From Alphaproteobacteria bacterium (GTDB lineage Bacteria; Pseudomonadota; Alphaproteobacteria; RF32; CAG-239): a stretch of 64,000 nt of DNA. The stretch lies in assembly GCA_015062585.1 (NCBI GenBank), contig SUUJ01000002.1:81263-145262 (forward strand), in the 5' to 3' direction. Of the stretch, positions 3,055 through 64,000 are shown one piece after another (position 1 is the first letter of the stretch; every line of letters begins with the position of its first letter). The notes under the pieces are model-generated. The model saw only the letters and a program-made list of their open reading frames with translations. It was not told where the DNA came from and ran no database searches. The translations under genes and the position numbers were made by a program.

Positions 3055-3594
3055 TTCTACTCCCCAATTTATTCTTAAATAATTAAAACCTAAAGTCAGT
3101 AAATCTATATATTTATAAAGAATATGTTATTACCAAAACCAAACAGTATTTATCCGTTATAAAAATGCAATGTGTTGCAAAACCGACTACAATCAAAAAC
3201 AAACATTCCCCTTATTTGCTTATGGTTGTATTTTTGCAATATCATTCTGTCTGCAATCTTTAACGATATAAAATGTACTTCTTTACATAGCATATATAAA
3301 TATAAAACTGACAACTAATATAATAGACGCTACTGTCAATGCTTTTAGATTCTATCAAAGTTTTATTTAATCAAAAAACTCTCTAACAAAGTGATTTGGA
3401 TATTAGATGAAAAAAAAAGAAAAACAATAGAACTTTTATAGAACATTGCAATTAATTTTCTTGACAAGGGATTCTTTAGGAGTCGAACGGATTCTGCCGC
3501 TTTTAGACAAAAAGAGCGCAAACCCTACGACTCTAATTTACAATAAAATAGAGGTTGGTTTGCGCTTAATAAAAAAAGCTGATTAAAGAGTATA

Positions 3595-3855
3595 TTACAA
3601 AGCTTTAATCTTTTGAGAAAGGCGAGAAATTTTACGAGATGCTGTATTCATCTTGAAAACGCCTTTTCTTACGGCACGCATCAATTCTGATTCGGCTGTT
3701 CTAAAAGCTGTGTTTGCCAACTCTTTATCACCGGCAACAATAGCGGCTTCCACTTTCTTAACGAAAGTGCGAACGCGATTTCTGCGAGCTCCGTTAATAA
3801 CGGCTCTTTTGTTGTTTCTTACGATTCTGCTTTTTGCAGACTTATGATTGGCCAT
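3595..3855 (-). CDS. rpsT: 30S ribosomal protein S20
   Basis: 86 aa, [36 protein letters not shown]... Basic S20 signature. Confidence 0.9.
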
Positions 3856-3979
3856 TTTTATTTTTCCATTTCAATTAAAAAAAGTTATTCCAATGTTTTA
3901 TAAATGTAATGCTTTATAGACTTGAACATCACCTAAAGTCAACAATAATTTTACTCAAAAGTCAGATTCTTTCGTTTTT

Positions 3980-4729
3980 TTATTTAAAATTATTCAAAAT
4001 ATTGGCAAATTCAGGCGTATTCATACTTAATCTGCAACTTTTAAGTTCTAATTCAAGGCCGTTTTGCAGGTTCATATTCTCTACCTGGCGCAAAGTTTCT
4101 TTTGCTTGAAGAACTGCTTGATAGGGCAACGAGGCGATTCTGTTTGCTATACGAACGGCTTCGGTATTTAAATCTTGTAATGGTACAACCCTGCTTATAA
4201 GACCGCAATAAGTTGCTTCTTCTGCGCTGATAGCTTTTCCGGTCAAAACAATATCCATAGTTTTTGCTTTACCGATTCTATGTATCAATCGGGAACAACC
4301 ACCAAAAGAAGGAATTGTTCCGATAGACAATTCCGGATATCCGAATTGAGCCGATTCTGCTGCTAAAATAATATCTCCGGCCAAAGCTAAGTCACAACCA
4401 AGTCCCAAAGCATAACCCGAAACAGCAACAATAATCGGTTTAGAACAATGTACGATTTTATTAAATTCGTCTTGCCAAGCTTTTAAGGCCAAGCTTTGTT
4501 GATTAACCTCACAACTTAGGTCTTTCATATCGATTCCGGCAGCAAAAACTTCGTCACTTCCCTTTATAATAATGCATCTTATCTCATCATTATAATCCCA
4601 ATCCTGAATTTGGTATGCTATTTCATTCAGCATTTCCAAATTTACGGCATTCATTTCGTTTGGTCTGTTTAAGGTAATCGTACCGATATATTCATCAACA
4701 TTTGTCAAAATAGTGTTGTTTCCATCCAT
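3980..4729 (-). CDS. Enoyl-CoA hydratase/isomerase (crotonase) family protein
   Basis: 249 aa with crotonase-fold motifs: the AAGIDMKDL oxyanion region and GYALGLGCDLALAGDIILAAESAQFGYPE. Confidence 0.8.
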   Translation of the reverse strand: MDGNNTILTNVDEYIGTITLNRPNEMNAVNLEMLNEIAYQIQDWDYNDEIRCIIIKGSDEVFAAGIDMKDLSCEVNQQSLALKAWQDEFNKIVHCSKPIIVAVSGYALGLGCDLALAGDIILAAESAQFGYPELSIGTIPSFGGCSRLIHRIGKAKTMDIVLTGKAISAEEATYCGLISRVVPLQDLNTEAVRIANRIASLPYQAVLQAKETLRQVENMNLQNGLELELKSCRLSMNTPEFANILNNFK

Positions 4730-4739
4730 GGCTTTTTCC

Positions 4740-5108
4740 TTATTGAGCTTTGCTTTTTACTACAAGTCTTAAAATCAACGGTTTTTTCGATTCTTCAGAT
4801 ATTTCCAGAGTTTCTCCATCGCGTTCAAACAATATTGTTTGTTCTGTTCTTTTTTTTCTCACCCAACCCATTTGCGGCAAAGTGTCTTCATAAAACTTTT
4901 TTATTTCCTTAAAGCTTTTCTTTTCTGAAGAAAAATAAGTTTCAAACAATCTAATTTCTTCATTGCCGAAGCTCAAAGATCCGTTTTCTATTTGAGCTAC
5001 ACCGTCAGGAAGAGGCATATCTTCCAATCCTTCAACGAATACGGCTTTTGCCTGAGTATAAACAAATAATGTCATAACAAAAAATAAAACAAATAAACTT
5101 TTTTTCAT
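4740..5108 (-). CDS. Secreted hypothetical protein
   Basis: 122 aa with an N-terminal signal peptide (MKKSLFVLFFVMTLFVYTQAKA). Its start overlaps the fpg stop by 4 nt (ATGA). Confidence 0.5.
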   Translation of the reverse strand: MKKSLFVLFFVMTLFVYTQAKAVFVEGLEDMPLPDGVAQIENGSLSFGNEEIRLFETYFSSEKKSFKEIKKFYEDTLPQMGWVRKKRTEQTILFERDGETLEISEESKKPLILRLVVKSKAQ

Positions 5109-5944
5109 TTTTGTAAGCTTTCACAATAAAAGGTCGATCTACCGGCAATGTTGATTGATTTGATTCCGCCGGTTGTTTTTATATCACATGTACAATGAGG
5201 ACATTTTTGCCCTGTTTTATTATAAACGCAATGCATATTTTGAAAATACCCAAGGCTTCCGTCCGGTTTTTTATAATCTCGTAGTGTCGAACCTCCGGCA
5301 TCAATAGCTTTTTGCAATACTTTTTTTGTATTTTCTATTATCAGGTTACATTCATCTAAAGTGATTTTATCGCAGGTCCTTGTCGGTAATATTCTGGATT
5401 CGTATAATATTTCCGAAGCATAAATGTTTCCGATTCCCGCGATTATGGTTTGATCCAAAAGAGCTGCTTTTATAAGCGTAGATTTTTTCTTTTGCAAATT
5501 ATTATAAAGATATTTTGCATCAATGACTTTGCTGAAAGGGTCGATTCCCACATTTTTGAGATATTTGTTTTTGCTGATTTCATCTTTTTTACAATATGTA
5601 AAAAGTCCGAAGCGACGCGGGTCATTATAGGTTAAAAAACCGTTAGATGTTTTAATAATTATGTGGTCGTGCTTATCAATAGCATTGATTTCGTCCGAAA
5701 TTTTTACTTTTCCGCTCATTCCCATATGCCAAATAATACAAAAATCATTGTCTAAATGAATGACAATATATTTTGCAATCCGTTCATAATTGATAATTTT
5801 AGCATTTTTTACGATGTGCTCCATGTCATCGGGGATTAAATCTCTTAATCTTCGATTCCTTATTTCTATATCCAAAATTTTGGCACATCCTATGCCTTTT
5901 TTAATAGCATTTTTTATAGTTTCGACTTCAGGTAATTCAGGCAT
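5105..5944 (-). CDS. mutM: Formamidopyrimidine-DNA glycosylase (Fpg/MutM)
   Basis: The internal Met gives the canonical MPELPEVETI N-terminus (catalytic Pro2, Glu3). C-terminal zinc finger CPHCTCDIKTTGGIKSINIAGRSTFYC. The upstream 23 codons of ORF 5105..6013 are probably not translated. Confidence 0.85.
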   Translation of the reverse strand: MPELPEVETIKNAIKKGIGCAKILDIEIRNRRLRDLIPDDMEHIVKNAKIINYERIAKYIVIHLDNDFCIIWHMGMSGKVKISDEINAIDKHDHIIIKTSNGFLTYNDPRRFGLFTYCKKDEISKNKYLKNVGIDPFSKVIDAKYLYNNLQKKKSTLIKAALLDQTIIAGIGNIYASEILYESRILPTRTCDKITLDECNLIIENTKKVLQKAIDAGGSTLRDYKKPDGSLGYFQNMHCVYNKTGQKCPHCTCDIKTTGGIKSINIAGRSTFYCESLQK

Positions 5945-6110
5945 GGCATCTTTCGTTGTTAAAAGAGGATTTATTAAAAAAAAGTATAATTGTTTTTTAC
6001 TTGAAAACAACACCTAAATTATTTGTTTTATCTAAAAATTAAAAAAACTTGCACTAATTTGTTTAATGCGTTAATTTGCTAAGAATTGTTGTTTATATGA
6101 ATAAGAAAAA

Positions 6111-6647
6111 ATGATTAGAAAAACGCGTCGTCAAAGTAAATATTTTGCCCCACAGAATGAAAACACCAAGCATATCTGTGATCATCCCGGATGCAACAAA
6201 TCCGGTGAATATCGCGCGCCCAAAGACAGGAAGTTGAAAGAATACTATTGGTTTTGCTTAGAGCATGTTCAAGAGTATAATGCCAAATGGAATTATTACG
6301 GTGACGATTCCTTTGTCGAAGAAGAGGATGTTTTCCGCCAAAAATTCAAGTTTTCATCTCATGTTAAATATAATTTCGGCTTTGATTTAAACGGAGATTA
6401 TGACTTTTTTAATAAATATTCTTACTCAAGCGCTAACGAGCATATTCGTCTTTCTGCAGACGAGCGCGAGGGCTTAAAACTTATGGAATTGTCATACGAT
6501 AATCTAAGTGCCGATTCTTTGAAAAAAGCGTATAAAATTGCCGTAAAAAAATATCATCCCGATTTGAACAAAGCAGATAAAACTTTGGAAGAAAAATTTA
6601 AGATTGTCAGCACATCGTACAAATCTTTATTAAGCAAACTGTCTTAG
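6111..6647 (+). CDS. J-domain protein with N-terminal Cys/His zinc-ribbon-like region
   Basis: C-terminal J domain ([19 protein letters not shown]) and N-terminal CDHPGC...FCLEH. Confidence 0.7.
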   Translation: MIRKTRRQSKYFAPQNENTKHICDHPGCNKSGEYRAPKDRKLKEYYWFCLEHVQEYNAKWNYYGDDSFVEEEDVFRQKFKFSSHVKYNFGFDLNGDYDFFNKYSYSSANEHIRLSADEREGLKLMELSYDNLSADSLKKAYKIAVKKYHPDLNKADKTLEEKFKIVSTSYKSLLSKLS

Positions 6648-7483
6648 CGTTGTTTGGCTCTGTCAAGATTCTTTTCTAACTGTTTAAGCCTTTCTTTTTT
6701 CAGCTTTTTGTCTTTTTCTTTATCAATATTGCGATTGTCTTTTCTTCCTGATTTTTCCAGAATGAGTTTAGCCGCTTTTTTATTGCTTTTTTCTTTTCCG
6801 ATATCAGCTATATCTTTAGCGTTCATTTTTTCCGATAAAGAGTTTAAGTCGCCTTCTGTATTAAGAATACCTGACTTTTTCATCTTTTCCAGACCGGTTA
6901 TCAGATTTTGAGCTTCTTTTGAAGAAAGATTCTCAGTTTTAAGTTTTGTCTGTGAAGCAATATTTTCCAATAAGCTGTTTTCAAAAGTTCTGGCATCAAA
7001 AGAAACATCCATGGTCTTTTGCGCAACAACCTTTTTGCTTATTTCTTTCAGTCCAAGCTCTTTTGAGCGTTGGTTTGCTTGCAAGATACCGGCAACCTTT
7101 CCGGCAGTTTCTTGCATTTTGAGATTCTCTATACTTTTATTTGCGTTTAATCTTGTTTTTTCTTCATCGCTTAGCGCGTTAAATAAAGAATTACCCATTT
7201 CATCAAAAGAAAAATCAAAGATTACAGAAGTTTTTCCGTCTTCCTCGTCTTCATCATCATCGTCATAAACATCTCTGATTTTACTTTTAATTTTTTTCAA
7301 ATTTGGAGTTATTTTAGTAATGCTTTTGGTAACTTTTTTGCTGTTTTTATCAGAGTCGGCAGCAACCATGGCTTTTTTTTGATCAAGCCTTCGAGATATG
7401 CGGGTATTTTTCGAAAAACCTTTTCCGATTCCCCAATCTATATTTGAGCTACTATCTTCTTCGTTCATAGTTTTTCCAAACAT
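6644..7483 (-). CDS. Hypothetical highly charged (Lys/Asp/Glu-rich) protein
   Basis: 279-aa ORF, low complexity, with an acidic DDDDEDEEDG stretch. Convergent with the J-domain gene. No recognised domain. Confidence 0.45.
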   Translation of the reverse strand: MFGKTMNEEDSSSNIDWGIGKGFSKNTRISRRLDQKKAMVAADSDKNSKKVTKSITKITPNLKKIKSKIRDVYDDDDEDEEDGKTSVIFDFSFDEMGNSLFNALSDEEKTRLNANKSIENLKMQETAGKVAGILQANQRSKELGLKEISKKVVAQKTMDVSFDARTFENSLLENIASQTKLKTENLSSKEAQNLITGLEKMKKSGILNTEGDLNSLSEKMNAKDIADIGKEKSNKKAAKLILEKSGRKDNRNIDKEKDKKLKKERLKQLEKNLDRAKQR

Positions 7484-7525: not shown

Positions 7526-9217
7526 TTAATCAATGCTTTTATATACAATAAGAAGCGCACCATCCGACAGGTTTTTTACGGATACTTGTATTTTTTTATC
7601 ATCCAACCGCTTCAAAGTTATAGTTTTGGAAGTGCGATTAAGCATATTAGCACTAATGCCTTTCTTTACTTTTTCCCATTCATCTTTATTGGCAAAAAAT
7701 TGTTGTTGGCTATCCAAAATCTCTTCAAAAGTAGGTTCTCCGGCTAAGAAAACTTTGTCAGCATCCCACATTTTTATATAAGCATCATTATAAAAACTTA
7801 AACGACTGTTTGCGCCGAATATAAGGACTCCGTCAAAAATACCGGTTAAAATTTCATTTTGTACGGACATCAAGGCATTGTAGGCCGATGTTGTCGCAAT
7901 TCTGTCGGTAATATCTTCAAAAGCAAAAACTACGCCGCCCATCGGATACGGAGCCTGCATTCTGCGAAAAGTTTTACCGTTTGGCAAATGCATCAAATCG
8001 CTCACCGGTTCAATAATTTGCAAAAATTTCTTTTGTTCATCTTTTTTATAAGCTTTATAATCAGGAACCTCGGGCAGCATTCTATTTTCTCTGATATAAT
8101 CTAAAAAGCTCAAATAAGTTTGCGGAGCATTAAGCCAAGCGGAATCAAGTTTCCACAAGGTAGTAAACGCCTGGTTGTTAAATTGAAGACTCATGTCCTG
8201 ATTAAATACGGCAAAAGCCGTTCCCAAGGCTTGTAAAATTTCTAATTGAGCTTCTTGGTGCTGTTTTAAATTTCGTTTTAACTCGTCCAGTTCGTTTATG
8301 TTAATAAGGCAACCGGCACTATAAGTTTTTTCCAAATTTTGTTCAGGATAAAAGGGTGTTTCATAAGCTTCCATTGCAACTCGCGAACCTTTTATTACAA
8401 CACCGACCTTTGTTTTTGAGCCTCGTTTGCTTTTATGAACACCGGCTGCCAAGTTTCTGGATACGCTTTCACCGCTTGTTCCGGTAATTTCCAAGTGCTC
8501 TTCAATAATATTATTTCGGTTTTTATCAGGAATAAATTCTACAAATTTTTTATTACAATATGATATATCAAGATTTTCATCTCTGAGCCACACGGCAAAA
8601 GGCAGATTATCTAAAATATCTTGTTGCAACAGGTGTTTTTTCTCAGTGTCGGATAATTCTTTTTCCAAAGTTTTTATGCGGTTTGTCGCAAAACTGACAT
8701 CTCTAAACCATATCATATCGCAATAAATATTGCCGTCAGCACCGTTAATTCGGTTTCCTTCCAATCTGATGTATTTGTTTGAAGATTTTAGTAAAAAGTA
8801 ATCTTCAAAGGCAACACCTTCTTCTTTTAACAGTCCGACATATTTTAATATTTTTTTTGCATCATCTTTGTAAAAGCTTTTCAAAACTTCGTTAAAGTCT
8901 GATTTTACACCTTTTTCCAAACCCAAAATAACAGCCAATCGACGAGAGCATCTTTCGGTAATATATTTTCTCGGGTCATTAACTTTTTCATCAGGATAAA
9001 TAAAGGCAAAATATCCGTCATGCGAGGCGTACAATGTTTCGGCATAACGCTCTCTGTCACGGCGCAAGAAATAATTTTTTTGCTTTAGTTTCAAAAAGAA
9101 GAAAAACAACAAAAACAAAGAACATATTAAAAAAACAACGATTCCGGCGATGAGGTACCAAAGCTCCGGAGCTGCGTAAAACATATTCAAAAGTAATTCT
9201 TTATCCATTTTGCCCAA
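7526..9217 (-). CDS. Membrane-anchored PAS-domain protein (no recognisable kinase or output domain)
   Basis: 563 aa, with one N-terminal TM helix (LWYLIAGIVVFLICSLFLLFFFFL) followed by PAS-like repeats. No HisKA/HATPase or GGDEF/EAL motifs seen. Confidence 0.55.
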   Translation of the reverse strand: MGKMDKELLLNMFYAAPELWYLIAGIVVFLICSLFLLFFFFLKLKQKNYFLRRDRERYAETLYASHDGYFAFIYPDEKVNDPRKYITERCSRRLAVILGLEKGVKSDFNEVLKSFYKDDAKKILKYVGLLKEEGVAFEDYFLLKSSNKYIRLEGNRINGADGNIYCDMIWFRDVSFATNRIKTLEKELSDTEKKHLLQQDILDNLPFAVWLRDENLDISYCNKKFVEFIPDKNRNNIIEEHLEITGTSGESVSRNLAAGVHKSKRGSKTKVGVVIKGSRVAMEAYETPFYPEQNLEKTYSAGCLININELDELKRNLKQHQEAQLEILQALGTAFAVFNQDMSLQFNNQAFTTLWKLDSAWLNAPQTYLSFLDYIRENRMLPEVPDYKAYKKDEQKKFLQIIEPVSDLMHLPNGKTFRRMQAPYPMGGVVFAFEDITDRIATTSAYNALMSVQNEILTGIFDGVLIFGANSRLSFYNDAYIKMWDADKVFLAGEPTFEEILDSQQQFFANKDEWEKVKKGISANMLNRTSKTITLKRLDDKKIQVSVKNLSDGALLIVYKSID

Positions 9218-9286
9218 CTTTGAAAGAAAATAATTGTTTGTTAACTGATTTTATTATATAAAAAAGATTATTAAAACTTAAAATTT

Positions 9287-9970
9287 ATGGCAAGTGGAAA
9301 AATGTACAACCTTACTTTTGATACAACAGGATCGTCTTGTAGTATAGTTTTAAAAAAAGATGACGAAATTATAGATATTTTTGAAAAATCTATGGATTTC
9401 GGACAGTCTGAAGAGTTGATGATCCAAATCAAAAATATTTTGCAAAACAATAGCTTGGGCTTTGCTGATATAGGAGCTTTGTTTGTGTGTGTAGGCCCCG
9501 GATCATTTACCGGCGTGCGCTCATCTATTTCGGCAGCCAGAGTATTCAGTATAGCTTGCCCTGATTTGAAAGTAGGCGGAGTTTCAGCTTTTGATGCCTA
9601 TATAAACACTATGACAACAGATGAAACCGCAGATATAAATGCGGTAATTATTGAAACTCGTCGCGATGACTTTTATATTCAAATTTTTGATAAAAACTTA
9701 AACAAAATAAGTGAGCCTTGCGCTCTAGACAGAGTTGCAATCATAGAAAAGTTAAAAAATTTCGGTTGTGCTGTTTCAATGGTTGGTGACGGTGTTGAAC
9801 GATTTTTATCATTACCTAGCGGTCTTTGCTTAAAAAGCATCAAAATACTGGATTGTTTGCCTGTAAAAGTGTTGGCGCAAACCGGCCTAAAACAGCTTAA
9901 AGATAAAAAGATAAACTATCCTAAGCCACTGTATTTAAGAGCTCCGGATGTATCAATACCAAAATCTTAA
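9287..9970 (+). CDS. tsaB: tRNA threonylcarbamoyladenosine biosynthesis protein TsaB (YeaZ family)
   Basis: Kae1/YgjD-like fold lacking metal ligands. GPGSFTGVRSSISAARVFS motif. Confidence 0.8.
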   Translation: MASGKMYNLTFDTTGSSCSIVLKKDDEIIDIFEKSMDFGQSEELMIQIKNILQNNSLGFADIGALFVCVGPGSFTGVRSSISAARVFSIACPDLKVGGVSAFDAYINTMTTDETADINAVIIETRRDDFYIQIFDKNLNKISEPCALDRVAIIEKLKNFGCAVSMVGDGVERFLSLPSGLCLKSIKILDCLPVKVLAQTGLKQLKDKKINYPKPLYLRAPDVSIPKS

Positions 9971-9975
9971 AAATC

Positions 9976-11466
9976 TTATTTTTTCGAAGATATTTCGTAT
10001 CCGTTATCACCGTCAACAGCCGAATTTGCAAAAGCAAAATCATTGGCGTTAACAGAGTGGATTCTATACAAGACATCACCTCGTTCGACTTTGTCGCCGA
10101 CTTTCTTAAATAAATCCAGTCCTGAACCGGGGGTTTGTTGTGCGCCGGCTAAAATACCGATACGATTTATGCGAGAGTTGTTTATTGATTCAACAACACC
10201 ATGCTTATCTGCAGTAATATCGCGAGTCAATCTGCCAAGTTGTGCTTGCGGGGCTTTGCCTTGGGTGTAAATAATTCTGTTAAGAGCTTCTAAAGCGCGT
10301 CCTGACGCAAGAATTTCTTTTGCAATGTGATAACCTTGACCTCCGCGAACTTTCGGATCAAATTCGATAAGCCTTCCCGCCAAGAACAAAGACTTTTCTT
10401 TCAAATCTTGTGGCGCATTTTCCTTATTACGCAAAACTCTCATAACATCGCGAGCCTCTAAGACGGAACCAACGCCATTACCGATAGGTTCGCTTCCGTC
10501 TGTAATAACGGCGTCAACCTGAATATTCAGCATATCGCCGATATATTCTATCATTTTTCTTATTTTTAAGGCGTCATTAGTGGTTTTTATATTTGAATTC
10601 GGTCCTACGGGAATATCAACCAACAAATGCGATACACCGGTAATCAACTTAATAGCAATAATCGAGGCCAATACATGTTCTTGCTTAACCATTCCCAAGT
10701 TGCGTTGCACGGAAGATATAACCTTACTTGCATAGGTTATGGGCAGATTATAGTGGTTAACAATAGCACCTCGGTTTTCGCGAATAGATTTTCTAATGAT
10801 TTTTTCATCAATATCGACATTTGCCAAAACACCGAAAGTATCGGCAACACCGGCACAAGAGGTTAAAGATCTTGAAGCTGTTTTCATCACCGGCAAACCG
10901 TAAGCAGCCACGATTGCTGCAACAATAATATCGGTCTTATTACCCGGAACACCGCCCATACAGTGATGATCTACTACAATATTTTCATTATCCCAATTAT
11001 AACATTCATCGCCGGCTAAAGCTTCGGTCAAAGCCAAAACTTCCTGAACCGTCATAAAAGAGCCTGTCGCCACCAAAAATGATGCAACATCCATATTTGA
11101 ATATTTTTTTGCGGTAATATCTTTTATGATTGCTTTGTATTCGCTGTCATACAACACATTACCTGATATTTTTCTTTTTATTGAGGCAACGGAAGATGGT
11201 ACGGTAGCTAAACTGACGGTAACATTAGCGCCTTCGGGAAGATTAAGTTGCTCAAAAGCTTGATTGTTTACACCTAATTGATTTGGAGATACAATAGATT
11301 CGTCATCAACCACTTCCAAAAAAGCGCCCACCGGCTCAGCACCGCCGTGAACCTCTATTTTGGTAACATTTTTAATGTCCTCAACTTTGTAAATATCGCA
11401 ATCTCTGTGCAGATAAACAATATTCTCGTTAAAAGAATTTATTGCAACATGTTTCAGAGATAACAT
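9976..11466 (-). CDS. Thymidine/AMP phosphorylase family protein
   Basis: 496 aa. Glycosyl-transferase family 3 signatures (HHCMGGVPGNKTD, TASRSLTSCAGVADTF) and the pyrimidine-nucleoside phosphorylase C-terminal region. Confidence 0.7.
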   Translation of the reverse strand: MLSLKHVAINSFNENIVYLHRDCDIYKVEDIKNVTKIEVHGGAEPVGAFLEVVDDESIVSPNQLGVNNQAFEQLNLPEGANVTVSLATVPSSVASIKRKISGNVLYDSEYKAIIKDITAKKYSNMDVASFLVATGSFMTVQEVLALTEALAGDECYNWDNENIVVDHHCMGGVPGNKTDIIVAAIVAAYGLPVMKTASRSLTSCAGVADTFGVLANVDIDEKIIRKSIRENRGAIVNHYNLPITYASKVISSVQRNLGMVKQEHVLASIIAIKLITGVSHLLVDIPVGPNSNIKTTNDALKIRKMIEYIGDMLNIQVDAVITDGSEPIGNGVGSVLEARDVMRVLRNKENAPQDLKEKSLFLAGRLIEFDPKVRGGQGYHIAKEILASGRALEALNRIIYTQGKAPQAQLGRLTRDITADKHGVVESINNSRINRIGILAGAQQTPGSGLDLFKKVGDKVERGDVLYRIHSVNANDFAFANSAVDGDNGYEISSKK

Positions 11467-55900: not shown

Positions 55901-57628
55901 CTATTTTTGCTCATCTATAACAAATTCCTTGATACATAAAGTAAATACTCTGTTTACATTATTACTTGGGCTACTAACCTTTATCGAAATTTTATTTTTT
56001 CCGTGTAGTGCGGATAAAGGAATGTTATAAGTGGCGACTTCATTTTGTATAGGAGACGGACCTGTTGTAGCATTTTCATACACAACAACATCATTTACAA
56101 AAATCTTAAAAGGATCATTTACTTTCATATAGTTCATTTCAAGGTAGAGATTATTTTTTGGCTGTTTATCCAAGGTCATCGAAATGAATGTTGCGCCGTT
56201 ACACCATGGACTTTTTTCTCCAAAATCCACATAAGCTCCAAGAGTTTTATTATCAAGCTTTTGCCCGATTTTATAATTTTTATATGAAGCTTTTATATTA
56301 TCAAATTTTTTAAATTCATTATATAATTTATTATTCGCGCCTACCAACAAATTAAAGTCATTACCTTTTTGTTCCAACAAAGTTTTATTTTCTCTAAACA
56401 GAGAGCGTCCAATTCCAAATTTGGCAATATCATATCCCATTGCTTCCAAGATAGTTGGAGCAAAGTCATAGGTCGTAAATTTTCTTTGTTTGTTATGAGT
56501 TTTTGCAACTGTGTTAATGAAAATATTAAGAGTTTCTTCTGCCGAGAACAAATCATTTGATATTTGATGATCACCCAAAAGCAATATAGTAGTGCGTTCT
56601 CCGAAGGGCTGTTTTTTTACCCAATCAACAAATTTTTTGGCAGACATTCCGGTACAAGCAGCAGCATCTCGAATATCATCAAATTTTTTTTCACAGTTCG
56701 GGTCATAATAAGCATTTGGCGTGCTATGCATATCCAGAGTTGTCAAAGCCACAAAAAATGGCTCTTTCAAATTCAAGATTTCGTCTTTTGCCACTTCAAA
56801 CAAAACCCTGTCTTTTAGGCCTCCGAACTCATTTCCTTTATAATCTTCACTAATTTTTTTAGCCCCATCTTCAAACTCAAAAAGACCTTTAGCTACATCA
56901 AAACCTCGTTGCTCAGCAAAATAATTTGCTCGTGAAAACTTTATATCGGCAGCTTTTAAGTATGCAGTAGAATAGCCGTTTTCTTTTAACAAATCAGGAA
57001 TACACTTAATGCTTGGCAAAAAGTTCATATAATCATCACCCGAGGTTTTGCCGTTTTGTAACAAAGGAAGTCCGCAGAGTGAAGCAAATTGAGCGTGAAT
57101 AGTCGAAAAAGTTTCATTTGTTTGTTTAAATCCGTCAAAAGAAATATTTTCCCCTCTGAGTTGAGCCAAAGTCGGAGATACATTATCTTCGGCAAACCGT
57201 TTTTCAAAACTTTCCAGATATACAATAATCAGATTATTTTTTACTTCTTTTTCAATTTTTGGCGCTACATAATTTTCTTCATAAAAAGTTGTTGTTGTAT
57301 TTTTGTATCTGTAATAAGCAATTATATCGAACTCAAAAATCGGCAATAAGAAGAACAGAATTGATAAAATAATTATATGTTTTGCTTTTAAAAAGCAGAC
57401 ACCCAAAAATGCAACAACAAGCAAAATAGAGGAATAAATTTTGATTTTTCTTACCGCCCAATCAAGATAAAAAACCTCATCAAATACGGACAAAAATTTA
57501 TCAATGGAAACAATACCGAAATTAAAATAAGTATAAGCAATCACGCCGGCAGTTATAACCGCGGCATAAAAAAGGACAAATAAAAACACATCTGCTAATA
57601 CCGATTTTATTTTCATGACTGCTTCCAA
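55901..57628 (-). CDS. LTA-synthase/sulfatase-family (phosphoglycerol- or phosphoethanolamine-transferase-like) membrane protein with extra C-terminal domain
   Basis: 575 aa. Five N-terminal TM helices, then a sulfatase-like domain (IIVYLESFE, LLLGDHQ), then a roughly 150-aa C-terminal extension. Start may be the Met at 57616. Confidence 0.65.
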   Translation of the reverse strand: MEAVMKIKSVLADVFLFVLFYAAVITAGVIAYTYFNFGIVSIDKFLSVFDEVFYLDWAVRKIKIYSSILLVVAFLGVCFLKAKHIIILSILFFLLPIFEFDIIAYYRYKNTTTTFYEENYVAPKIEKEVKNNLIIVYLESFEKRFAEDNVSPTLAQLRGENISFDGFKQTNETFSTIHAQFASLCGLPLLQNGKTSGDDYMNFLPSIKCIPDLLKENGYSTAYLKAADIKFSRANYFAEQRGFDVAKGLFEFEDGAKKISEDYKGNEFGGLKDRVLFEVAKDEILNLKEPFFVALTTLDMHSTPNAYYDPNCEKKFDDIRDAAACTGMSAKKFVDWVKKQPFGERTTILLLGDHQISNDLFSAEETLNIFINTVAKTHNKQRKFTTYDFAPTILEAMGYDIAKFGIGRSLFRENKTLLEQKGNDFNLLVGANNKLYNEFKKFDNIKASYKNYKIGQKLDNKTLGAYVDFGEKSPWCNGATFISMTLDKQPKNNLYLEMNYMKVNDPFKIFVNDVVVYENATTGPSPIQNEVATYNIPLSALHGKNKISIKVSSPSNNVNRVFTLCIKEFVIDEQK

Positions 57629-58467
57629 AATTCCTTCAAATTATCCAATATACTCAAAGCGTCTTTTCTACCCAATTCGTACATAGCCTTAACTTTGCCC
57701 AAGTCTTTTTCCATGCGTTTTACACCCAAATCGACCGATGGGCGAATAATCAGAGTGTTTGGCGAGTTTTTTGCCTCACTTTCAACAAACTCAAGCTGTT
57801 TGTTATACATATCTGCGCGATTCTCAATAGCCTGAGCAAACAAAGGAAACTTGCGATAAACCCATTTGGAAAAACTGTCAAATTTTGATTTTTTCTTTTT
57901 GTATCCTTCAGGGCGGGTAAGAACAACCACATTTTTTTCAAACCCCATTTTTTGTGAGGCTTCTAGAGGAATAGAGTCGCAAATTCCGCCATCAAGCAAT
58001 TTTTTGCCGTCAATTTCAACAATCTTTGAAAACACCGGCAATGAAGCAGACGCGCGCAAATAAGTAATACTTCGCCTTAATTCGGTGCAATGTATATATT
58101 CGGCTTTTCCTGTTTCGATATTTGAACATACGGCATAAAATTTAGTTTTAGCTTTTTCAAAAGTATCATGATCAAAAGGGTCCAAAATTTCGGGCAACTC
58201 ATAATAGCAAAATTTTGTATCGACGACATTTCCGGTCAAAAGCCAATTTCTAAGGCTCATAAACTTATAATTGTTGCTGTGTTTCATATAATATCTGATA
58301 GATCGTCCGATTTGTCCCGACACATAAGACGCGCCGTGTATTGCGCCGGCAGACACGCCGACCACCTGATCGGCAATCAAACCGTTTTCGAGCAAAACAT
58401 CCAAAACACCGGCGGTATAAATACCTCTTTTAGCCCCGCCTTCCAAAACCAAAGCCACACTCATCAA
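57613..58467 (-). CDS. Patatin-like phospholipase
   Basis: GGAKRG oxyanion motif, GVSAG nucleophile elbow, and DGG catalytic Asp. Confidence 0.85.
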   Translation of the reverse strand: MMSVALVLEGGAKRGIYTAGVLDVLLENGLIADQVVGVSAGAIHGASYVSGQIGRSIRYYMKHSNNYKFMSLRNWLLTGNVVDTKFCYYELPEILDPFDHDTFEKAKTKFYAVCSNIETGKAEYIHCTELRRSITYLRASASLPVFSKIVEIDGKKLLDGGICDSIPLEASQKMGFEKNVVVLTRPEGYKKKKSKFDSFSKWVYRKFPLFAQAIENRADMYNKQLEFVESEAKNSPNTLIIRPSVDLGVKRMEKDLGKVKAMYELGRKDALSILDNLKEFWKQS

Positions 58468-58626: not shown

Positions 58627-59073
58627 ATGAAATATTTTGCATTTGTTATCGGACTTTTTTCAATCTGCACCATAGCATTGGCACAAGAAAACGATATGCT
58701 GCAAACCGAGTTGGAAGAAGAATATTATCAAAGGATGAATACATCGCCCGACAAGTCGCGAATCTACATTTTTTTCAATAATCAGCCCTGTCCTAATTGT
58801 CCGCAAGCCATTGAAATGATTGAAGAAGCCTACAATCAAAACTACCTCAACAACTACGAGCTTTTTTTAATAAACTATGCCGAAGATGCCAACTCCGGTT
58901 TTATCGAAGAATACAATTTAAGCAATCCGCTCGAGGTTGTAATGGTCGATGTCCAAAATGCGACTCCGACGGGTTTTCAAAAAATCGAAGGATTGCAAAA
59001 TATGACGGCTAATCCGAGTGCTTTTAACGAATTTTTCACCACTCAAGTAAACGGATATTTGCAAAATGACTGA
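58627..59073 (+). CDS. Secreted small protein with CxxC motif
   Basis: Signal peptide MKYFAFVIGLFSICTIALA, then NNQPCPNCPQ. Confidence 0.45.
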   Translation: MKYFAFVIGLFSICTIALAQENDMLQTELEEEYYQRMNTSPDKSRIYIFFNNQPCPNCPQAIEMIEEAYNQNYLNNYELFLINYAEDANSGFIEEYNLSNPLEVVMVDVQNATPTGFQKIEGLQNMTANPSAFNEFFTTQVNGYLQND

Positions 59074-59385
59074 TTTTTTTGTCATTTTAAAGGGTTAGAA
59101 GCACTTTTTTTTGTCAAAAACTCTTGTCATAGGGGGTAAAATATGATACTATATAAGATATGCAAAATACTATTTATCTCAATAATTTGGCCTATAATTA
59201 GAAAAAATCACGGGATTTCTTAACTTTTTAGACAATAGCGTTTGTCTTTGGTTGAAATCATACAACAGATTTTTTTTAGCCGAAATTCTATTCTAAGGTT
59301 TTGCAAATAAATACAGTTCTCTCCGCATATTAGCGTATGTGCGGTTCAATATATAGAAATATTAACTTAAAAAACAATAGAAATT

Positions 59386-61263
59386 ATGAAACAAAAGAAA
59401 CTTCAAATCCTAGCGTGGATTGGTATTGTTATGGCAATGTTTGCCATTGAAAGTTGCGAAATGCAAAACGCCCCAGACTTAGATTTTAATCAACAGGGGA
59501 TTTATGTCAAGGGAGACGGCAAAGACAGTATTCCTTATGCTGTACATGATACCGTTTTCATCCCAAGTGACAGTACTGTTATAAACTTTATTGACAGTAC
59601 TGTTATAAACTTTATTGACAGTACGGTTATTACTTACATAGACAGTGTTATATACGATACTTTGCCCAGCGGTGAAGTGGACACAATCTACATCTACCGT
59701 AAGCCAAAGATCAACTGTGTTAAATTTTTTGAGGGACAAATATTCCTTCACGACAGCACAGGGCTTGTCTATGCAATGAGTTTCCCATATTCAATGAATA
59801 TTGCGGACACTCTGAGGTTTAAGACAGAAGCTGATACTATCAGTATGCTGACAGGCAATACCTTTATTTTCAAAGACTTAGGCACTTCTAAAGTTGATGT
59901 CCGTTTTTCTAACGAAACAGATATCATCACATCAAGTGTTGATGTTCCTTGGGTTATGGGATTGACCATTAACGGCGATTATGTTGAAACTTGTGTCGAT
60001 TACACCTTAAATGTTTCGATACTGGAAAGAAAGACCGAAAATGGGTACCTGTACCTCAAGGTCAACTACGCAATCACCTTCGAGGATGATTACGGAATTA
60101 CTAGGTCCGCGATTTCTAAAAATCAGGTAATTGTTGCTCCTATCAAGGAGGAAGAAAAACCTGAGCCTGAGAATGTACGCACTAAAGATATCGACTATGT
60201 TATAGATACAGCTCAGACCCACCAAGGTGGTAGATTGACAGCAATCATCAACATTGTCAATTCTTTAGAGACTATTGAAGATTCCACTATTTCTGTAGAA
60301 GCTCCGATAGTTTTATCCATCAAAGCAGGTGACTCAACATCTGTTATCGGCTCAAATTTTGATGTTACTCCAGGTGTTCTAAGATTGGAGGAGTCAAAAT
60401 GTGAGGCTAAAAGTACCACCAAAGACGGTGTTACAATTAGCTGGAATGAATACACGGTAATGTGTCCTCAGGACATTGTTGCTGGTGGAGAGCATTTGAA
60501 TGTCGTACAAACCGTTACTTATACTAACGATTATGTAATCACATTCGAAGACACCACAGTAGCTATTCCTTTAACCTTGGATGTACAACAAATATCCAAG
60601 AGCGATGATGGAGATGTTAAGGCAGAGGGTGGTTATGCAAAGCAAGATGTTAAGTTGACTTATGAGGCCAGCTTGACAGATATGCAAACAATGGTTGAAC
60701 TGACAGACAAAGCTGAGCAAAAGATCAGTATTCTCTTCAAGGCGATTAGCTTTGATGGTCAGGTAGTTGATACTGTTTATCAGACAGCTACTTATCCGGA
60801 CATTAATGAGATTCCGATAATTTGCACTGCTGTGTTGACTCACAGTGAGACAAATCCATCTCAGCACTATGTCCACTACCGCTTTGAAGGTAGCGCAAAC
60901 ACATCTTGGACTTCAGTAACACTGACAGACGCTGAATATGATTATATAATAAATCATAAAGGCGCACCTATGGCTGGCCAATGGGCTCTTACTGTTTGCT
61001 ACCCAAATGGCAAAACAGGAGATGTCGTAGTCGGTTATTTGGACGATCATTGTCCAATAGAGGTTATGTATTATAGCCCCGGATATAACGACTACACGGT
61101 AATGACCAGTCAGAACACAATGTTTGGCGCTCTTAACCGTGCAGTTGTTTGCAGTGGTTCAAGATTGTCAAACGGACTGATAGAGTTAAAAAACCCAACT
61201 GATGTTAAGTTGGGCGAGAAAGTGATATATCCTGCACAAACAAGTGCTATCTACTTTCTCTAA
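59386..61263 (+). CDS. Large lipoprotein with in-frame 24-bp tandem repeats (DSTVINFI x3)
   Basis: Signal peptide MKQKKLQILAWIGIVMAMFAIESC. Tandem DNA repeat GACAGTACTGTTATAAACTTTATT at 59570-59645. Beta-rich composition. Confidence 0.5.
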   Translation: MKQKKLQILAWIGIVMAMFAIESCEMQNAPDLDFNQQGIYVKGDGKDSIPYAVHDTVFIPSDSTVINFIDSTVINFIDSTVITYIDSVIYDTLPSGEVDTIYIYRKPKINCVKFFEGQIFLHDSTGLVYAMSFPYSMNIADTLRFKTEADTISMLTGNTFIFKDLGTSKVDVRFSNETDIITSSVDVPWVMGLTINGDYVETCVDYTLNVSILERKTENGYLYLKVNYAITFEDDYGITRSAISKNQVIVAPIKEEEKPEPENVRTKDIDYVIDTAQTHQGGRLTAIINIVNSLETIEDSTISVEAPIVLSIKAGDSTSVIGSNFDVTPGVLRLEESKCEAKSTTKDGVTISWNEYTVMCPQDIVAGGEHLNVVQTVTYTNDYVITFEDTTVAIPLTLDVQQISKSDDGDVKAEGGYAKQDVKLTYEASLTDMQTMVELTDKAEQKISILFKAISFDGQVVDTVYQTATYPDINEIPIICTAVLTHSETNPSQHYVHYRFEGSANTSWTSVTLTDAEYDYIINHKGAPMAGQWALTVCYPNGKTGDVVVGYLDDHCPIEVMYYSPGYNDYTVMTSQNTMFGALNRAVVCSGSRLSNGLIELKNPTDVKLGEKVIYPAQTSAIYFL

Positions 61264-61330
61264 TATGTAGAACCCGCCGGCATATTTGCAAAGATTTTTT
61301 TGTAAATATGCTAGCATAAATCCTAGAATT

Positions 61331-62440
61331 ATGGCAAAAAAGAAATGGCTGTTATTGATTATCATGATAGCCTCTATAAGCGCACACGCGCAGTACACAG
61401 CATCCCACAATTTTTACGCTGTTACAGAAGCGGAGATGGGGATTGACTCGGTAAAAACCGATCCAAGATATTGGGCGGGATTTAATATATCCAACACACT
61501 TGTATGGCCCAACGGCCTCATGGTTGATCTTGGAGGCGCTTATGCCCTCTCGTCAAAATATGAAGTCAAAGGAACTTTTAATACGGGTATCGGATACAAA
61601 TTTACCGATTGGTTTAACGCTAAAGCTGTTCTAAAAAATGGTTTCGCAACCTCATTAGACAGTATTAGCTTTCATAATACCAAGAACGATGACTGGTATT
61701 ATGAATACCGAAAGAGTCCGTATTATTTAGTTAACTTTAATTTAGAAGCCATCTTCAAAATTAAAGACTTTATTATAGGATTATCAGCTGGTTATAACCA
61801 CTATACTCCTATAGGCAACATAAATAAGACTTTAGGTGAAAATTGGGTGTTGGAAAACTCTTCAATAGCCCCTAAAAACAGCTTAACCTTAGGGTTAAAT
61901 GTTGGATATTCTATCCCCAACACAGTAAAAAAAGACGGAGACAATCCGTTTGAGTTTTTTGCTGAAACTGGTTGGAATAGTCTTTTCGGAGCCAAAGCCG
62001 GAATTGCCACAGGTTATACCTGGCGTATGAACTATTGGCTTATGTTGGAGGCATCAACCGGAATTGATTATTATTGGCAAAGCCAAAGTTTGGCTGCCAA
62101 CATCAAGTTCGGACCAAAATTTGCTCCTTGGGGTTATAATTCAAAAGTTATTTTTGCTCTTTATGGGCAAGTTGCTTTTGGTGAGTACTATGGCTTGAAA
62201 TACAATGTACAAGCTGAAAACCCTGAGCGACTGGATGTAGGAGGTTTGAATAATACTTTGGGTCTCAACCTTATGTTGACACCTGAAGTTTCACTAAACC
62301 TCAACCGTGTTGGTATATTGTTTGGTTGCCGAGGCGGATATTTTTTCCGTTCCGGATTTGACGGTCACAATGTGACGGCAACCGTAAGCGATTACAAAGG
62401 GTGGAACATCGAGCCTTATCTGGCGATAAGGATCAATTAG
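61331..62440 (+). CDS. Putative outer-membrane beta-barrel protein
   Basis: Start at MAKKKWLLLIIMIASISAHAQ (Bacteroidetes-style signal peptide). Alternating amphipathic beta-strand pattern, Gly/Tyr/Asn-rich. Confidence 0.45.
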   Translation: MAKKKWLLLIIMIASISAHAQYTASHNFYAVTEAEMGIDSVKTDPRYWAGFNISNTLVWPNGLMVDLGGAYALSSKYEVKGTFNTGIGYKFTDWFNAKAVLKNGFATSLDSISFHNTKNDDWYYEYRKSPYYLVNFNLEAIFKIKDFIIGLSAGYNHYTPIGNINKTLGENWVLENSSIAPKNSLTLGLNVGYSIPNTVKKDGDNPFEFFAETGWNSLFGAKAGIATGYTWRMNYWLMLEASTGIDYYWQSQSLAANIKFGPKFAPWGYNSKVIFALYGQVAFGEYYGLKYNVQAENPERLDVGGLNNTLGLNLMLTPEVSLNLNRVGILFGCRGGYFFRSGFDGHNVTATVSDYKGWNIEPYLAIRIN

Positions 62441-62461
62441 ACTAGAAATCCCTATTAATTT

Positions 62462-62500
62462 AGAGAGCCGACACCTTGTGTGTCGACTCTCTTTTTTTTT
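62462..62500 (+). terminator. Rho-independent terminator
   Basis: AGAGAGCCGACACCTTGTGTGTCGACTCTCTTTTTTTTTT. Confidence 0.7.
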
Positions 62501-62520
62501 ATATCAAAACAACAACGCCA

Positions 62521-62760
62521 TCACCTGAGAGAATAAATAATGTTATTCCTCGCGCGGCGCTTTGCCGTAAAAACATATGTCATCGCCTGAGTGAGCTTGC
62601 GAACGAGGTTAGCGATCTTCAAATTATTCTTAAAAACAAGGAAGATCCCTGGAATTTTTTGTTGCACAAAAAATAGGGATGACTTTGTTGTTGTTTTATG
62701 TCATGCCTTGAGCGGAACTTTAGTGTAGCGAGACTAGGCATCTTCAAATTAGATTAAATT
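62521..62760. repeat. Cluster of palindromic repeat elements (upstream arm of the array flanking the GIY-YIG gene)
   Basis: 62527-62575: GAATAAATAATGTTATTCCTCGCGCGGCGCTTTGCCG. 62577-62622: ATGTCATCGCCTGAGTGAGCTTGCGAACGAGGTTAGCGATCTTC. 62641-62746: GAAGATCCCT...GGGATGACTTTGTTGTTGTTT...ATGTCATGCCTTGAGCGG...AGACTAGGCATCTTC. Confidence 0.75.
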
Positions 62761-62802
62761 ATTACATTGACTTAATAAATTGATATATATTATATTTTTT
62801 AT

Positions 62803-63096
62803 ATGAAAACAATGTATGTATATATAATGACCAATATAAATAATACCACACTGTATGTTGGTGTTACAAATGATTTGTGTCGTCGAGTATATGAACATAA
62901 AAATGATATATTTAAAGGTTTTACAGCAAAATATTCTCTCCATAAATTAGTTTATTTTGAAACTTTTGAAGATGAATTATCTGCTATTGCTTGTGAAAAA
63001 TATTTAAAAAAATGTTTTAGAAAAACAAAAGAAAAACTAATCAGCAAAAAGAATCCTCAATGGAATGATTTGTCTGATGATTTTAAACTAATCTGA
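62803..63096 (+). CDS. Standalone GIY-YIG nuclease domain protein (COG2827/YhbQ-like)
   Basis: 97 aa: YVYIMTN..LYVGVTNDLCRRVYEHKN. GIY-YIG motifs with conserved Arg and Glu. Confidence 0.8.
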   Translation: MKTMYVYIMTNINNTTLYVGVTNDLCRRVYEHKNDIFKGFTAKYSLHKLVYFETFEDELSAIACEKYLKKCFRKTKEKLISKKNPQWNDLSDDFKLI

Positions 63097-63490
63097 AGAT
63101 CGCTAACCTCGTTCGCAAGCTCACTCAAGCGATGACTTATTTTTTATAAGAAACAACAACAAAGTCATCCCTCGATTGCGTTGAGCAATCGTCTAGGGAT
63201 CTTCAAATTAAATAAAACAAGAACCGCGATTTATGTTTTTTAGCTTTTTTTGACCGGAAACTATCCTTTTATGCACCCAAAGTCAGCCAACGGATGTGAA
63301 GGGCACATCCGGTTGAAAAAAGCGTATAAAAAAACATCTTGAGCGGTGACTTTTGGTTACTTTTGGTCATTCAAAAGTAACATAAGAATAATTTGAAGAT
63401 GCCTAGTCTCGCTACACTAAAGTTCCGCTCAAGGTATGACCTTATTTTTTTCGCCAAAGCGCCGAGCGAGGAATGACATTATTTATTCAC
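63095..63490. repeat. Inverted copies of the same palindromic repeat elements (downstream arm)
   Basis: 63095-63204 is the reverse complement of the 62577-62746 pattern (GAAGATCGCTAACCTCGTTCGCAAGCTCACTCA...AAAGTCATCCCTCG...GGGATCTTC). 63395-63488 is the reverse complement of 62527-62575 plus the 62700-62746 core (GAAGATGCCTAGTCTCGCTACACTAAAGTTCCGCTCAAGGTATGAC...CGCCGAGCGAGGAATGACATTATTTATTC). Additional perfect hairpins at 63290-63315 and 63352-63381. Confidence 0.75.
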
Positions 63491-63618
63491 TTAAGACGAC
63501 GACATTTTTTATCATTGCTTTGGTGGTAGCGACGCGGAAATTTCGGCATACTTATAAAAAAAGCGGAACTTATTTTAATCAAAAGCCCCGCTTTTACTCT
63601 AGGAGTTAGTGCTGTTTA

Positions 63619-64000
63619 TTAAAAAGTAAATCTTATACCGGCATACCATTCATGACCGTTTATTTCACCTTCTTCAATCTTACCCAAGGTATAATAACGA
63701 TAACCGGCATCAATATTCAAACATTTGTTAATTCTCAATGTCAAACCGGCACCGGCCTGCCAAGAAAATTTACTATCTTCACTAGTAAAGGTATTCTGAT
63801 TGTTTCTAATTTTAAATTCTATCTCGCTATAACCGATACCACCGTTGATATAAGGGCTTATCCAATAGTTTGGCATAAAGTCAATATAGCCGTTCAACAT
63901 CAATGACTGAGCCTCAACATAAGTCGAGTTTGCCCAATTTCCGACACTATTGTAGCTTTCTTCTTCAGCGTTATCTCTAACAACATATTCTATTTCACCG
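63619..64000 (-). CDS. Outer-membrane beta-barrel protein (OmpA/OmpW-like porin family), C-terminal part; gene continues past window end
   Basis: Ends ...GHEWYAGIRFTF with the proteobacterial C-terminal Phe signature. The minus-strand reading frame stays open to position 64000. Confidence 0.55.
   Translation of the reverse strand, partial: GEIEYVVRDNAEEESYNSVGNWANSTYVEAQSLMLNGYIDFMPNYWISPYINGGIGYSEIEFKIRNNQNTFTSEDSKFSWQAGAGLTLRINKCLNIDAGYRYYTLGKIEEGEINGHEWYAGIRFTF

Follow-up and report, generated by a model that had tools for sequence, protein, structure and literature searches.

The stretch of DNA analysed here (64,000 nucleotides of an alphaproteobacterial genome; further referred to as the window) belongs to a housekeeping chromosome of approximately 36% GC and carries, among others, dnaK, dnaJ, rpsA, cmk, lon, accA/accD, rpmH-rnpA-yidD-yidC-engB, and two tRNA genes. 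Close to its end lie two adjacent genes, annotated by NCBI as hypothetical proteins (E7004_01780/85), which encode a predicted lipoprotein and a probable outer-membrane beta-barrel protein (Table 1). Both the lipoprotein open reading frame (ORF) of 625 amino acids (aa) and the signal-peptide protein behind it, as proposed by a first-pass annotation of this DNA, were confirmed by the ORF list, and the 312-bp region before the pair and the repeat/GIY-YIG zone after it were both present. The gene order of this chromosomal slot is yidC-engB, a sulfatase-family gene, a patatin gene, a gene for a 148-aa secreted protein, the lipoprotein gene, the barrel gene, a gene for a small OMP_b-brl protein, pilin genes, and a type IV pilus cluster. 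In orthologous slots, a lipoprotein of 572-627 aa was followed directly at its 3' side by a signal-peptide protein of 354-375 aa, the two genes always being adjacent with a spacing of 11-90 nt.

The lipoprotein showed a modular layout, consisting of a signal peptide with Cys24 (59455-59457), a D-[ST]-[IV] repeat stalk, a domain A, a Pro/Glu linker (aa 253-263), a domain B, and a C-terminal domain ending in ...IYFL. Its N-terminus (MKQKK...FAIES-C24) combines a positively charged region, a hydrophobic region, and a lipobox Cys, as predicted for a lipoprotein exported by the Sec pathway and processed by signal peptidase II. In all full-length orthologues, the hydrophobic region likewise closed with a Cys (AIS-C, MSS-C, NTG-C, FAS-C, FVA-C, and MTS-C), and an aromatic motif (YFY, LFY, or YFL) was found at the C-terminus of the lipoprotein. 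An AlphaFold2 (AF2) model, based on a shallow alignment of three sequences, reached a predicted local distance difference test (pLDDT) value of 30.5. In one relative (L096), the lipoprotein gene was split (229 + 330 aa), as was the sulfatase-family gene (92 + 450 aa), the ORFs concerned being located at 5586-7360 and 9199-10993; these split genes represent either pseudogenes or assembly errors.

The 24-bp in-frame tandem repeats of the lipoprotein gene (DSTVINFI), reported by the first-pass annotation, were retrieved with Tandem Repeats Finder (TRF) and amount to three units. A D-[ST]-[IV]-rich tract was present directly after the lipobox linker in every orthologue, with a differing period and copy number (repeat units of 6, 8, or 12 aa; for instance, L019 carries DSIVYR four times and L014 DTIVQVDTLVNW twice, and DTV units are numerous in L011 and L018), indicating that this tract is a conserved, length-variable stalk, predicted to be beta-prone. 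Indeed, the copy number also differed between strains, three units occurring in the window and two in the related proteins P0002 and P0003, in agreement with the length variation that had been suggested. The on/off phase variation proposed at the same time did not hold, since 24-bp units preserve the reading frame.

The 369-aa product of the second gene is probably an outer-membrane beta-barrel. Its mechanically assigned start is a TTG codon at 61286, whereas the public gene calls and the alignment of orthologues favoured the ATG codon at 61331. The predicted signal peptide (MAKKKWLLLIIMIASISAHA|Q) is of the type processed by signal peptidase I (SPI), with cleavage after AHA and a mature protein that begins with Gln. 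The mature part is rich in Gly (10-16%), aromatic residues (14-17%), and Asn, Ser, and Thr (20-22% together), and contains many amphipathic strands and no hydrophobic helix. Most orthologues possess an alternating C-terminus that ends in Leu or Phe (...KLSIAL, ...RVAVAL, ...KFEFAF, and ...GCVSF), as is to be seen beside the absence of any match of the barrel orthologues with a Pfam outer-membrane protein (OMP) family at E <=10. An AF2 model of the protein was all-beta with approximately 17 strands, at a pLDDT of 34.5 (shallow alignment of two sequences), and the top 50 Protein Data Bank (PDB) matches of this low-confidence model in Foldseek were almost all outer-membrane barrels, with weak scores (E >=2e-3, template modelling (TM) score <=0.33), which is at most consistent with a barrel.

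Interspecies conservation was higher in the 312-bp gap before the lipoprotein gene than in the coding regions at its 3' side. The gap contains a putative sigma-70-like promoter, of which the block CTCTTGTCA...TAnTAT was conserved in all seven aligned upstream regions from different species. Downstream of this site, two hairpins (HP1 and HP2) expose the same loop, TAGCGT, which reads TAACGT in two species. The stem of HP1 was conserved, and a GACAAA/TTTGTC variant still pairs. The stem sequence of HP2 differed in nearly every species with pairing being kept (92.9% of cells paired; six of the eight pairs changed on both sides), and one more stem variant was found in L096/L097. The covariation score of HP2 was reached by none of 500 shuffles, and slid controls paired at no more than 64%. 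A third hairpin with this loop was present in the signal-peptide codons of this species only; its significance is uncertain. Throughout the window and approximately 100 kb of related loci, TAGCGT hairpins were confined to this leader, except for a duplicated leader in L019. In the latter genome, a second lipoprotein paralogue (2300-4867; 753 aa, with an internally duplicated middle domain) converges on the canonical pair and is preceded by a copy of the leader (promoter, HP1, and HP2) with approximately 90% identity. In L011 (approximately 9900-9990), L016, and L018, an extra insert of approximately 90 nt with a long inverted repeat (GGACCACCGAGC ... CGAGGTGGTC) occurred between HP2 and the start codon; it could represent either an additional structure of the leader or a small element inserted there. 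A search of the window against Rfam returned nothing at the gathering score except for the two tRNAs, and at a relaxed threshold the best matches in 59050-59480 had E values >=1.2 and scores far below the cut-offs. A metagenome scan for HP1 gave 54 matches. A single one of these, L093 of the same species, was genuine; the remaining ones lacked HP2, leader similarity, and the two proteins.

A long 5' leader before a surface-structure operon, with a short conserved motif on a hairpin, is reminiscent of the ops/JUMPStart element and of the leader hairpins of other specialised NusG paralogues. The ops element that is recognized by RfaH is a 12-nt sequence (GGCGGTAGCGTG) that forms a small hairpin, of which G4-A7 are read by RfaH (PMC5995543). 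TAGCGT corresponds with ops positions 6-11 and is present here in two copies. However, G4 and G5 are not conserved, as the bases 5' of TAGCGT are AA, AT, or GA and vary; furthermore, the stems measure 5-9 bp and lie approximately 95 nt apart, and no NusG paralogue was found in the window. An identification of the TAGCGT loop as ops was not accepted, as the bases read by RfaH are absent and the resemblance of a 6-mer could be due to chance. Hence, the resemblance is only a lead.

Concerning the origin of the pair, neither of the two proteins had a match in Pfam (E <=10), NCBIfam, PHROGs, or the PDB sequences. A word-indexed search of 5.8e9 proteins returned relatives of the lipoprotein only at >=80% identity and one relative of the barrel at 63% identity, and its repetition with a 14-sequence profile yielded close relatives only. 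An exhaustive HMMER profile search of 1.84e9 representatives retrieved 13 genuine distant lipoprotein relatives with 20-35% identity; one further candidate (P0012; 1559 aa, 24 matched stretches) was set aside as a low-complexity artefact. Further copies of the slot were found by a patatin-anchored scan. Every homologue with a recoverable context occupied the same chromosomal slot (L001-L009, L010, L011-13, L014-15, L016, L018-19, and L096-97), the synteny being kept across at least eight species-level genomes. The homologues were confined to a lineage of gut alphaproteobacterial metagenome-assembled genomes, one relative originating from sheep colon, and the slot partner in other species was homologous to the barrel of the window (hhalign probability of 98.1%, E of 7e-14). 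Hence, the pair is a native, chromosomally fixed operon of a gut/rumen alphaproteobacterial lineage.

The first-pass annotation had instead considered a recent horizontal acquisition from Bacteroidetes, on account of a signal peptide ending in AxAQ. Such a sequence is indeed present in the barrel, of which the mature part begins with Gln after AxA, as in the Q-rule, which concerns organisms that possess an inner-membrane glutaminyl cyclase and in which SPI substrates have Gln at position +1 (PMC5837995, PMC10653852). It is not peculiar to the pair, however, as the native 148-aa neighbour carries Gln at +1 as well (ALA|QE); this residue was absent from the other four SPI-type proteins of the window. 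Codon usage spoke on both sides. The synonymous-codon likelihoods of the two genes were the lowest of the 47 window genes (-1.13 and -1.12, compared with a mean of -0.985 and a standard deviation of 0.041; z of approximately -3.5), so that the atypical usage that had been anticipated was found; the GC content at third codon positions (GC3), in contrast, was not raised, the values of the pair (0.38 and 0.39) equalling those of its immediate neighbours in the window strain. In other species, the GC3 of the pair ranged from equal to the flanks (L011) to far higher (L014: 0.49 and 0.44, compared with approximately 0.33), the latter being in favour of an import. Nevertheless, taking into account that both searches returned homologues from the alphaproteobacterial lineage only, that the slot is conserved, and that a native neighbour displays the same signal-peptide end, an acquisition from Bacteroidetes is very improbable; the best-hit taxonomy, suggested as a check, was alphaproteobacterial throughout, and the situation is largely the one that the first-pass annotation had named as speaking against its own proposal. 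The atypical codons fit repeated allele exchange among related lineages and not import from another phylum.

The pair was the site of pronounced sequence divergence. Between species, YidC was 83% identical, EngB 93%, patatin 80-88%, and T2SSE 86-89%, whereas the lipoprotein was 20-30% identical and the barrel 19-25%. Within the species, the flanks were approximately 99% identical. The L006 strain was 97-100% identical to the window strain at the DNA level on both sides of a divergent block, which extends from approximately 60,700 to 62,680 of the window (the final third of the lipoprotein gene together with the complete barrel gene), is 50-80% identical, and runs unbroken through the intergenic spacer. 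The two barrel alleles of the species encode proteins that are 64% identical, with a synonymous divergence (dS) of approximately 1.5 and a ratio of non-synonymous to synonymous divergence (dN/dS) of 0.16, compared with a dS of 0.01-0.10 for the neighbouring genes and of 0.02-0.06 in the flanks. The saturated synonymous divergence and the low dN/dS of the barrel indicate old alleles under purifying selection instead of recent mutational bursts. In L007-L009, a window-type lipoprotein C-terminus was joined to the other barrel allele, indicating that the breakpoints differ and that the genes are mosaic. Divergent alleles with differing breakpoints thus lie between near-identical flanks, which points to old alleles that may be exchanged by recombination between strains.

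Two other genes in the vicinity showed similar differences. The sulfatase-family (phosphoglycerol-transferase-like) gene (55901-57065, minus strand) is a second hypervariable envelope gene, the DNA of its C-terminal/periplasmic part being 62-81% identical between strains and the adjacent sequence approximately 99%. Similarly, a pilin-like gene encoding 212 aa (L001, 15175-15813, approximately 1.2-1.8 kb past the window end), which adjoins the type IV pilus cluster, differed between the same two strains, with 61% protein identity and a dS of approximately 1.1; T2SSE and T2SSF beside it were 99-100% identical.

Within the lipoprotein, three pairs of alleles were compared over codons 399-458, and each pair showed 15-19 non-synonymous differences against 1-2 synonymous ones. 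The corresponding ratio of the proportions of non-synonymous and synonymous differences (pN/pS) was 2.4-3.7 in all three pairs, with a pS equal to that of the clonal flanks and a Fisher p of 0.13-0.17 per pair, so that a gathering of amino-acid changes in this patch is suggestive only. Changes at the same codons in three alleles, almost all of them non-synonymous, might be ascribed to a diversity-generating retroelement or another form of programmed mutagenesis. As no copy of a template repeat was found in the 64-kb window, such an origin is unlikely. In addition, the gene calls up to 10 kb away in both directions included no reverse transcriptase, the patch is not C-terminal, and the substitutions are not limited to a single base type; on balance, programmed mutagenesis is hardly credible here.

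An alternative view of the variability is that the two proteins are independent, the barrel being a porin or phage receptor of the ordinary kind, subject to frequency-dependent selection, and the 3' end of the lipoprotein gene varying by a spill-over of recombination tracts. This agrees with the barrel being the more divergent gene at every level, with the continuity of the divergent block of L006 across the spacer, and with the switched barrel allele of L007 behind a lipoprotein C-terminus that is still of the window type. However, the whole lipoprotein, and not only its 3' end, is at 20-30% identity between species, and it possesses its own hypervariable patch and its own repeat variation. 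Furthermore, the leader and the lipoprotein gene were duplicated as a unit in L019, and one promoter and one terminator are common to both genes. Independence of the two proteins is therefore considered rather unlikely. The pair of a lipoprotein and an OMP-like protein described by the first-pass annotation is supported, the two genes forming one transcription unit, and so is its idea of a surface module, with a predicted surface exposure.

Table 1. Features of the lipoprotein-barrel locus and its surroundings (positions in the window; pS and pN, proportions of synonymous and non-synonymous differences)
Feature	Position	Strand	Details
Upstream gap	59074-59385		312 bp; ORF list
Promoter-like site (putative)	59124-59152	+	TTGTCA-17-TACTAT with upstream TG; consensus scan
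HP1	59230-59247	+	AGACAA-TAGCGT-TTGTCT; predicted in minimum free energy fold; upstream of every orthologue
HP2	59323-59344	+	CCGCATAT-TAGCGT-ATGTGCGG; same loop as HP1
Lipoprotein gene	59386-61263	+	625 aa; starts MKQKKLQILAWIGIVMAMFAIESC
Third TAGCGT-loop hairpin	59406-59421	+	AATCC-TAGCGT-GGATT; within signal-peptide codons; this species only
24-bp tandem repeat	59568-59630		TRF: 2.6 copies, 97% matches, score 119
Three in-frame 24-bp units	59569-59640	+	DSTVINFI-DSTVINFI-DSTVITYI; aa 62-85
Amino-acid-hypervariable patch	60580-60759	+	aa 399-458; end of domain B
Lipoprotein C-terminal domain, deeply divergent allele in L006	60760-61263	+	aa 459-625; versus L006 pS 0.78, pN 0.30; versus L007 pS 0.07
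OMP-like (barrel) gene	61331-62440	+	369 aa from ATG 61331; starts MAKKKWLLLIIMIASISAHAQ
Intrinsic terminator closing the operon	62463-62500	+	12-bp stem with one mismatch, then 9 T (read from sequence); core detected by scan
GIY-YIG ORF	62803-63096		Pfam E 9e-16; within nested inverted repeats
OMP_b-brl ORF, partial	63619-63903	-	C-terminus ...RFTF

Hypervariable antigen loci that are maintained by allelic exchange or repeat-length variation occur elsewhere, as is the case for the neisserial TbpB, PorA, and pilin and for the Vlp repeat lipoproteins of Mycoplasma. The present locus resembles these in its divergent alleles between near-identical flanks, its mosaic genes, an in-frame lipoprotein repeat of changing length, and a hypervariable adjacent pilin gene. 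It differs from them in that the protein families are unrelated, that neither silent cassettes nor an invertible promoter or a slippage-prone homopolymer were seen, and that the variation was seen here between strains.

As to the joint function of the two proteins, one of the closest known arrangements is that of Slam (DUF560, type XI secretion) with the neighbouring surface lipoproteins TbpB, fHbp, HpuA, and NilC (PMC5449769, PMC8406197), in which host-associated Proteobacteria likewise carry a lipobox gene beside a gene for an outer-membrane barrel. The likeness to Slam cargo extends to an antigenically very variable lipoprotein with a long tether after the lipidated Cys. The barrel may accordingly be thought of as a dedicated translocator that flips the adjacent lipoprotein to the surface, as Slam does, and that is built on an unrelated protein. 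Indeed, Slam substrates have been searched for by the neighbourhood of a lipobox gene and a barrel gene (PMC5449769), the two genes were strictly linked in every genome examined, the putative cargo is hypervariable like TbpB and fHbp, and the aromatic motif mentioned above is located at the C-terminus of the lipoprotein. However, all Slam proteins carry both a DUF560 barrel domain and an N-terminal periplasmic TPR domain (PMC5449769), and six barrel orthologues matched neither of these at E <=10, nor was there any NCBIfam match. The barrel is approximately 130 aa shorter, and its mature protein of approximately 348 aa, which a beta-strand pattern occupies, is too short to accommodate both a 14-strand barrel and a periplasmic TPR domain. 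In addition, the lipoprotein has no sequence relation to TbpB-like proteins. Slam cargo would be expected to contain an eight-stranded barrel domain like that of TbpB; the fold matches of the lipoprotein AF2 model (pLDDT of 30.5) in Foldseek, those with fHbp included, were meaningless (fHbp: probability <=0.08, TM score of 0.07). Finally, translocators are usually conserved, whereas the variability of the barrel equals or exceeds that of its putative cargo, the barrel being here the more variable partner. A translocator function thus seems doubtful.

In Bacteroidetes, SusCD, RagAB, and BtuB-BtuG similarly consist of a co-transcribed lipoprotein and barrel that form one surface unit, and strain-level variability is common there too. 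The pair differs from these systems by the lack of Pfam and NCBIfam matches to a TonB-dependent receptor, a plug, or SusD/RagB, by a barrel of about one third of the size, and by an alphaproteobacterial host, the profile search having returned no Bacteroidota homologue. A last possibility is that the lipoprotein is a Mfa/FimA-like fimbrial subunit of the Bacteroidetes type, as had been suggested early on, or another pilus component, given that it is a beta-rich lipoprotein precursor that adjoins a type IV pilus cluster. This is quite improbable, as the window protein and three orthologues did not match any fimbrial family of Pfam at E <=10, and as the pilus genes (T2SSE/F, PilO, secretin, and PilS-type pilins) constitute a separate, oppositely oriented, conserved cluster.

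Taken together, the locus is best explained as a native two-gene surface operon, in which a lipoprotein and a barrel cooperate, which is kept polymorphic by allele swaps, and of which a hairpin leader controls expression; a probability of approximately 0.6 is assigned to this explanation. The operon would consist of the promoter, a leader of approximately 230 nt with two UAGCGU-loop hairpins, the lipoprotein gene, the barrel gene, and the terminator. Barrel and lipoprotein would act jointly at the cell surface, the barrel anchoring the lipoprotein or aiding its exposure, and the lipoprotein would be held off the membrane by its beta-rich D-[ST]-[IV] stalk, of which the length would be set by gain and loss of repeats. 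Both proteins may be met by phages or by host immunity, which would keep the locus polymorphic, and homologous recombination may swap deeply diverged old alleles among strains, its breakpoints lying within the genes as well as between them. The role of the leader hairpins is probably to recruit a dedicated regulator, acting either on elongation or on messenger RNA fate. It may further be speculated that the pair constitutes an undescribed system for lipoprotein display, i.e., a small barrel with a cognate repeat-stalked lipoprotein, unrelated in sequence to Slam, Bam, Lpt, and Sus, with a new UAGCGU two-hairpin leader that is recognized by an antiterminator or RNA-binding regulator of its own; this extension is rather unlikely.

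Several points weigh against the explanation as a cooperating, hairpin-controlled surface pair. The lipobox of the window lipoprotein (I-E-S-C) carries an atypical Glu at position -2. In the window allele, the barrel terminates with ...LAIRIN, without a hydrophobic last residue or the terminal Phe, as was rightly noted by the first-pass annotation in comparison with the OMP at the window end (...RFTF), and the other allele of the species ends in ...IIRYNNP. No confident fold was obtained for either protein (pLDDT of 30.5 and 34.5), the assignment of a barrel relying on composition, strand pattern, the C-terminal motif of the orthologues, and the weak Foldseek matches. Furthermore, the allele of the lipoprotein C-terminus and that of the barrel do not always co-vary (L007), which weakens the case for a tight co-evolution, and the mosaic junctions stem from metagenome assemblies and could be partly chimeric. 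Finally, surface exposure, physical interaction of the two proteins, and the regulatory role of the hairpins are predictions.

The genes and repeats around the pair displayed some particular features. At the 3' side, at least four nested pairs of inverted repeats (62528-63491; for instance, 62700-62751 with 63389-63440, 98% identical) enclose the GIY-YIG ORF. The sequence of L003 was 100% identical to the window up to approximately 62,650 and then diverged at the repeats, the GIY-YIG ORF being absent and fabA/bamA coming next. Similarly, L002 was 100% identical up to approximately 63,400 and then diverged at the repeats into a 1114-aa ORF and flagellar genes. Such a pattern would fit a mobile or recombinogenic element, but also an assembly breakpoint. 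At the 5' side, the gene for the 148-aa secreted protein (58627-59073, plus strand), which contains a CPNC motif, was always found just upstream of the pair; its product was 100% conserved between strains, its GC3 of 0.43 was the highest in the window, and it showed a sub-threshold match with the ArsF thioredoxin-like family (E of 8e-8, 32.7 bits compared with a cut-off of 60). The patatin+DUF6363 phospholipase gene (57613-58467, minus strand) had its best GTDB matches outside the lineage in Firmicutes (Lachnospiraceae, Oscillospiraceae, and Clostridium; 49-58% identity) and not in Proteobacteria, and may represent an old cross-phylum acquisition from gut neighbours. Elsewhere in the window, a 1523-aa ORF (41542-46113, plus strand) lacked a precomputed Pfam family; approximately 375 nt to its 3' side, on the other side of a tRNA-Arg gene, lies a 363-aa ORF (46488-47579) that has a classic LSGC lipobox.

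The signal-peptide 'style' alone turned out to be a poor guide to cross-phylum transfer. The lipoprotein and the barrel represent two uncharacterised, lineage-restricted protein families without a Pfam, NCBIfam, or PDB relative, as judged from the sequence searches, and the strict linkage of their genes makes them candidates for a new way of displaying lipoproteins at the surface. The leader hairpins, with their covariation, are likewise candidates for a new cis-regulatory element. As the most variable part of an otherwise clonal segment, the locus would mark what phages or host immunity 'see' on these uncultured gut/rumen Alphaproteobacteria, of which the surface biology is poorly known, and is a possible marker for strain typing.

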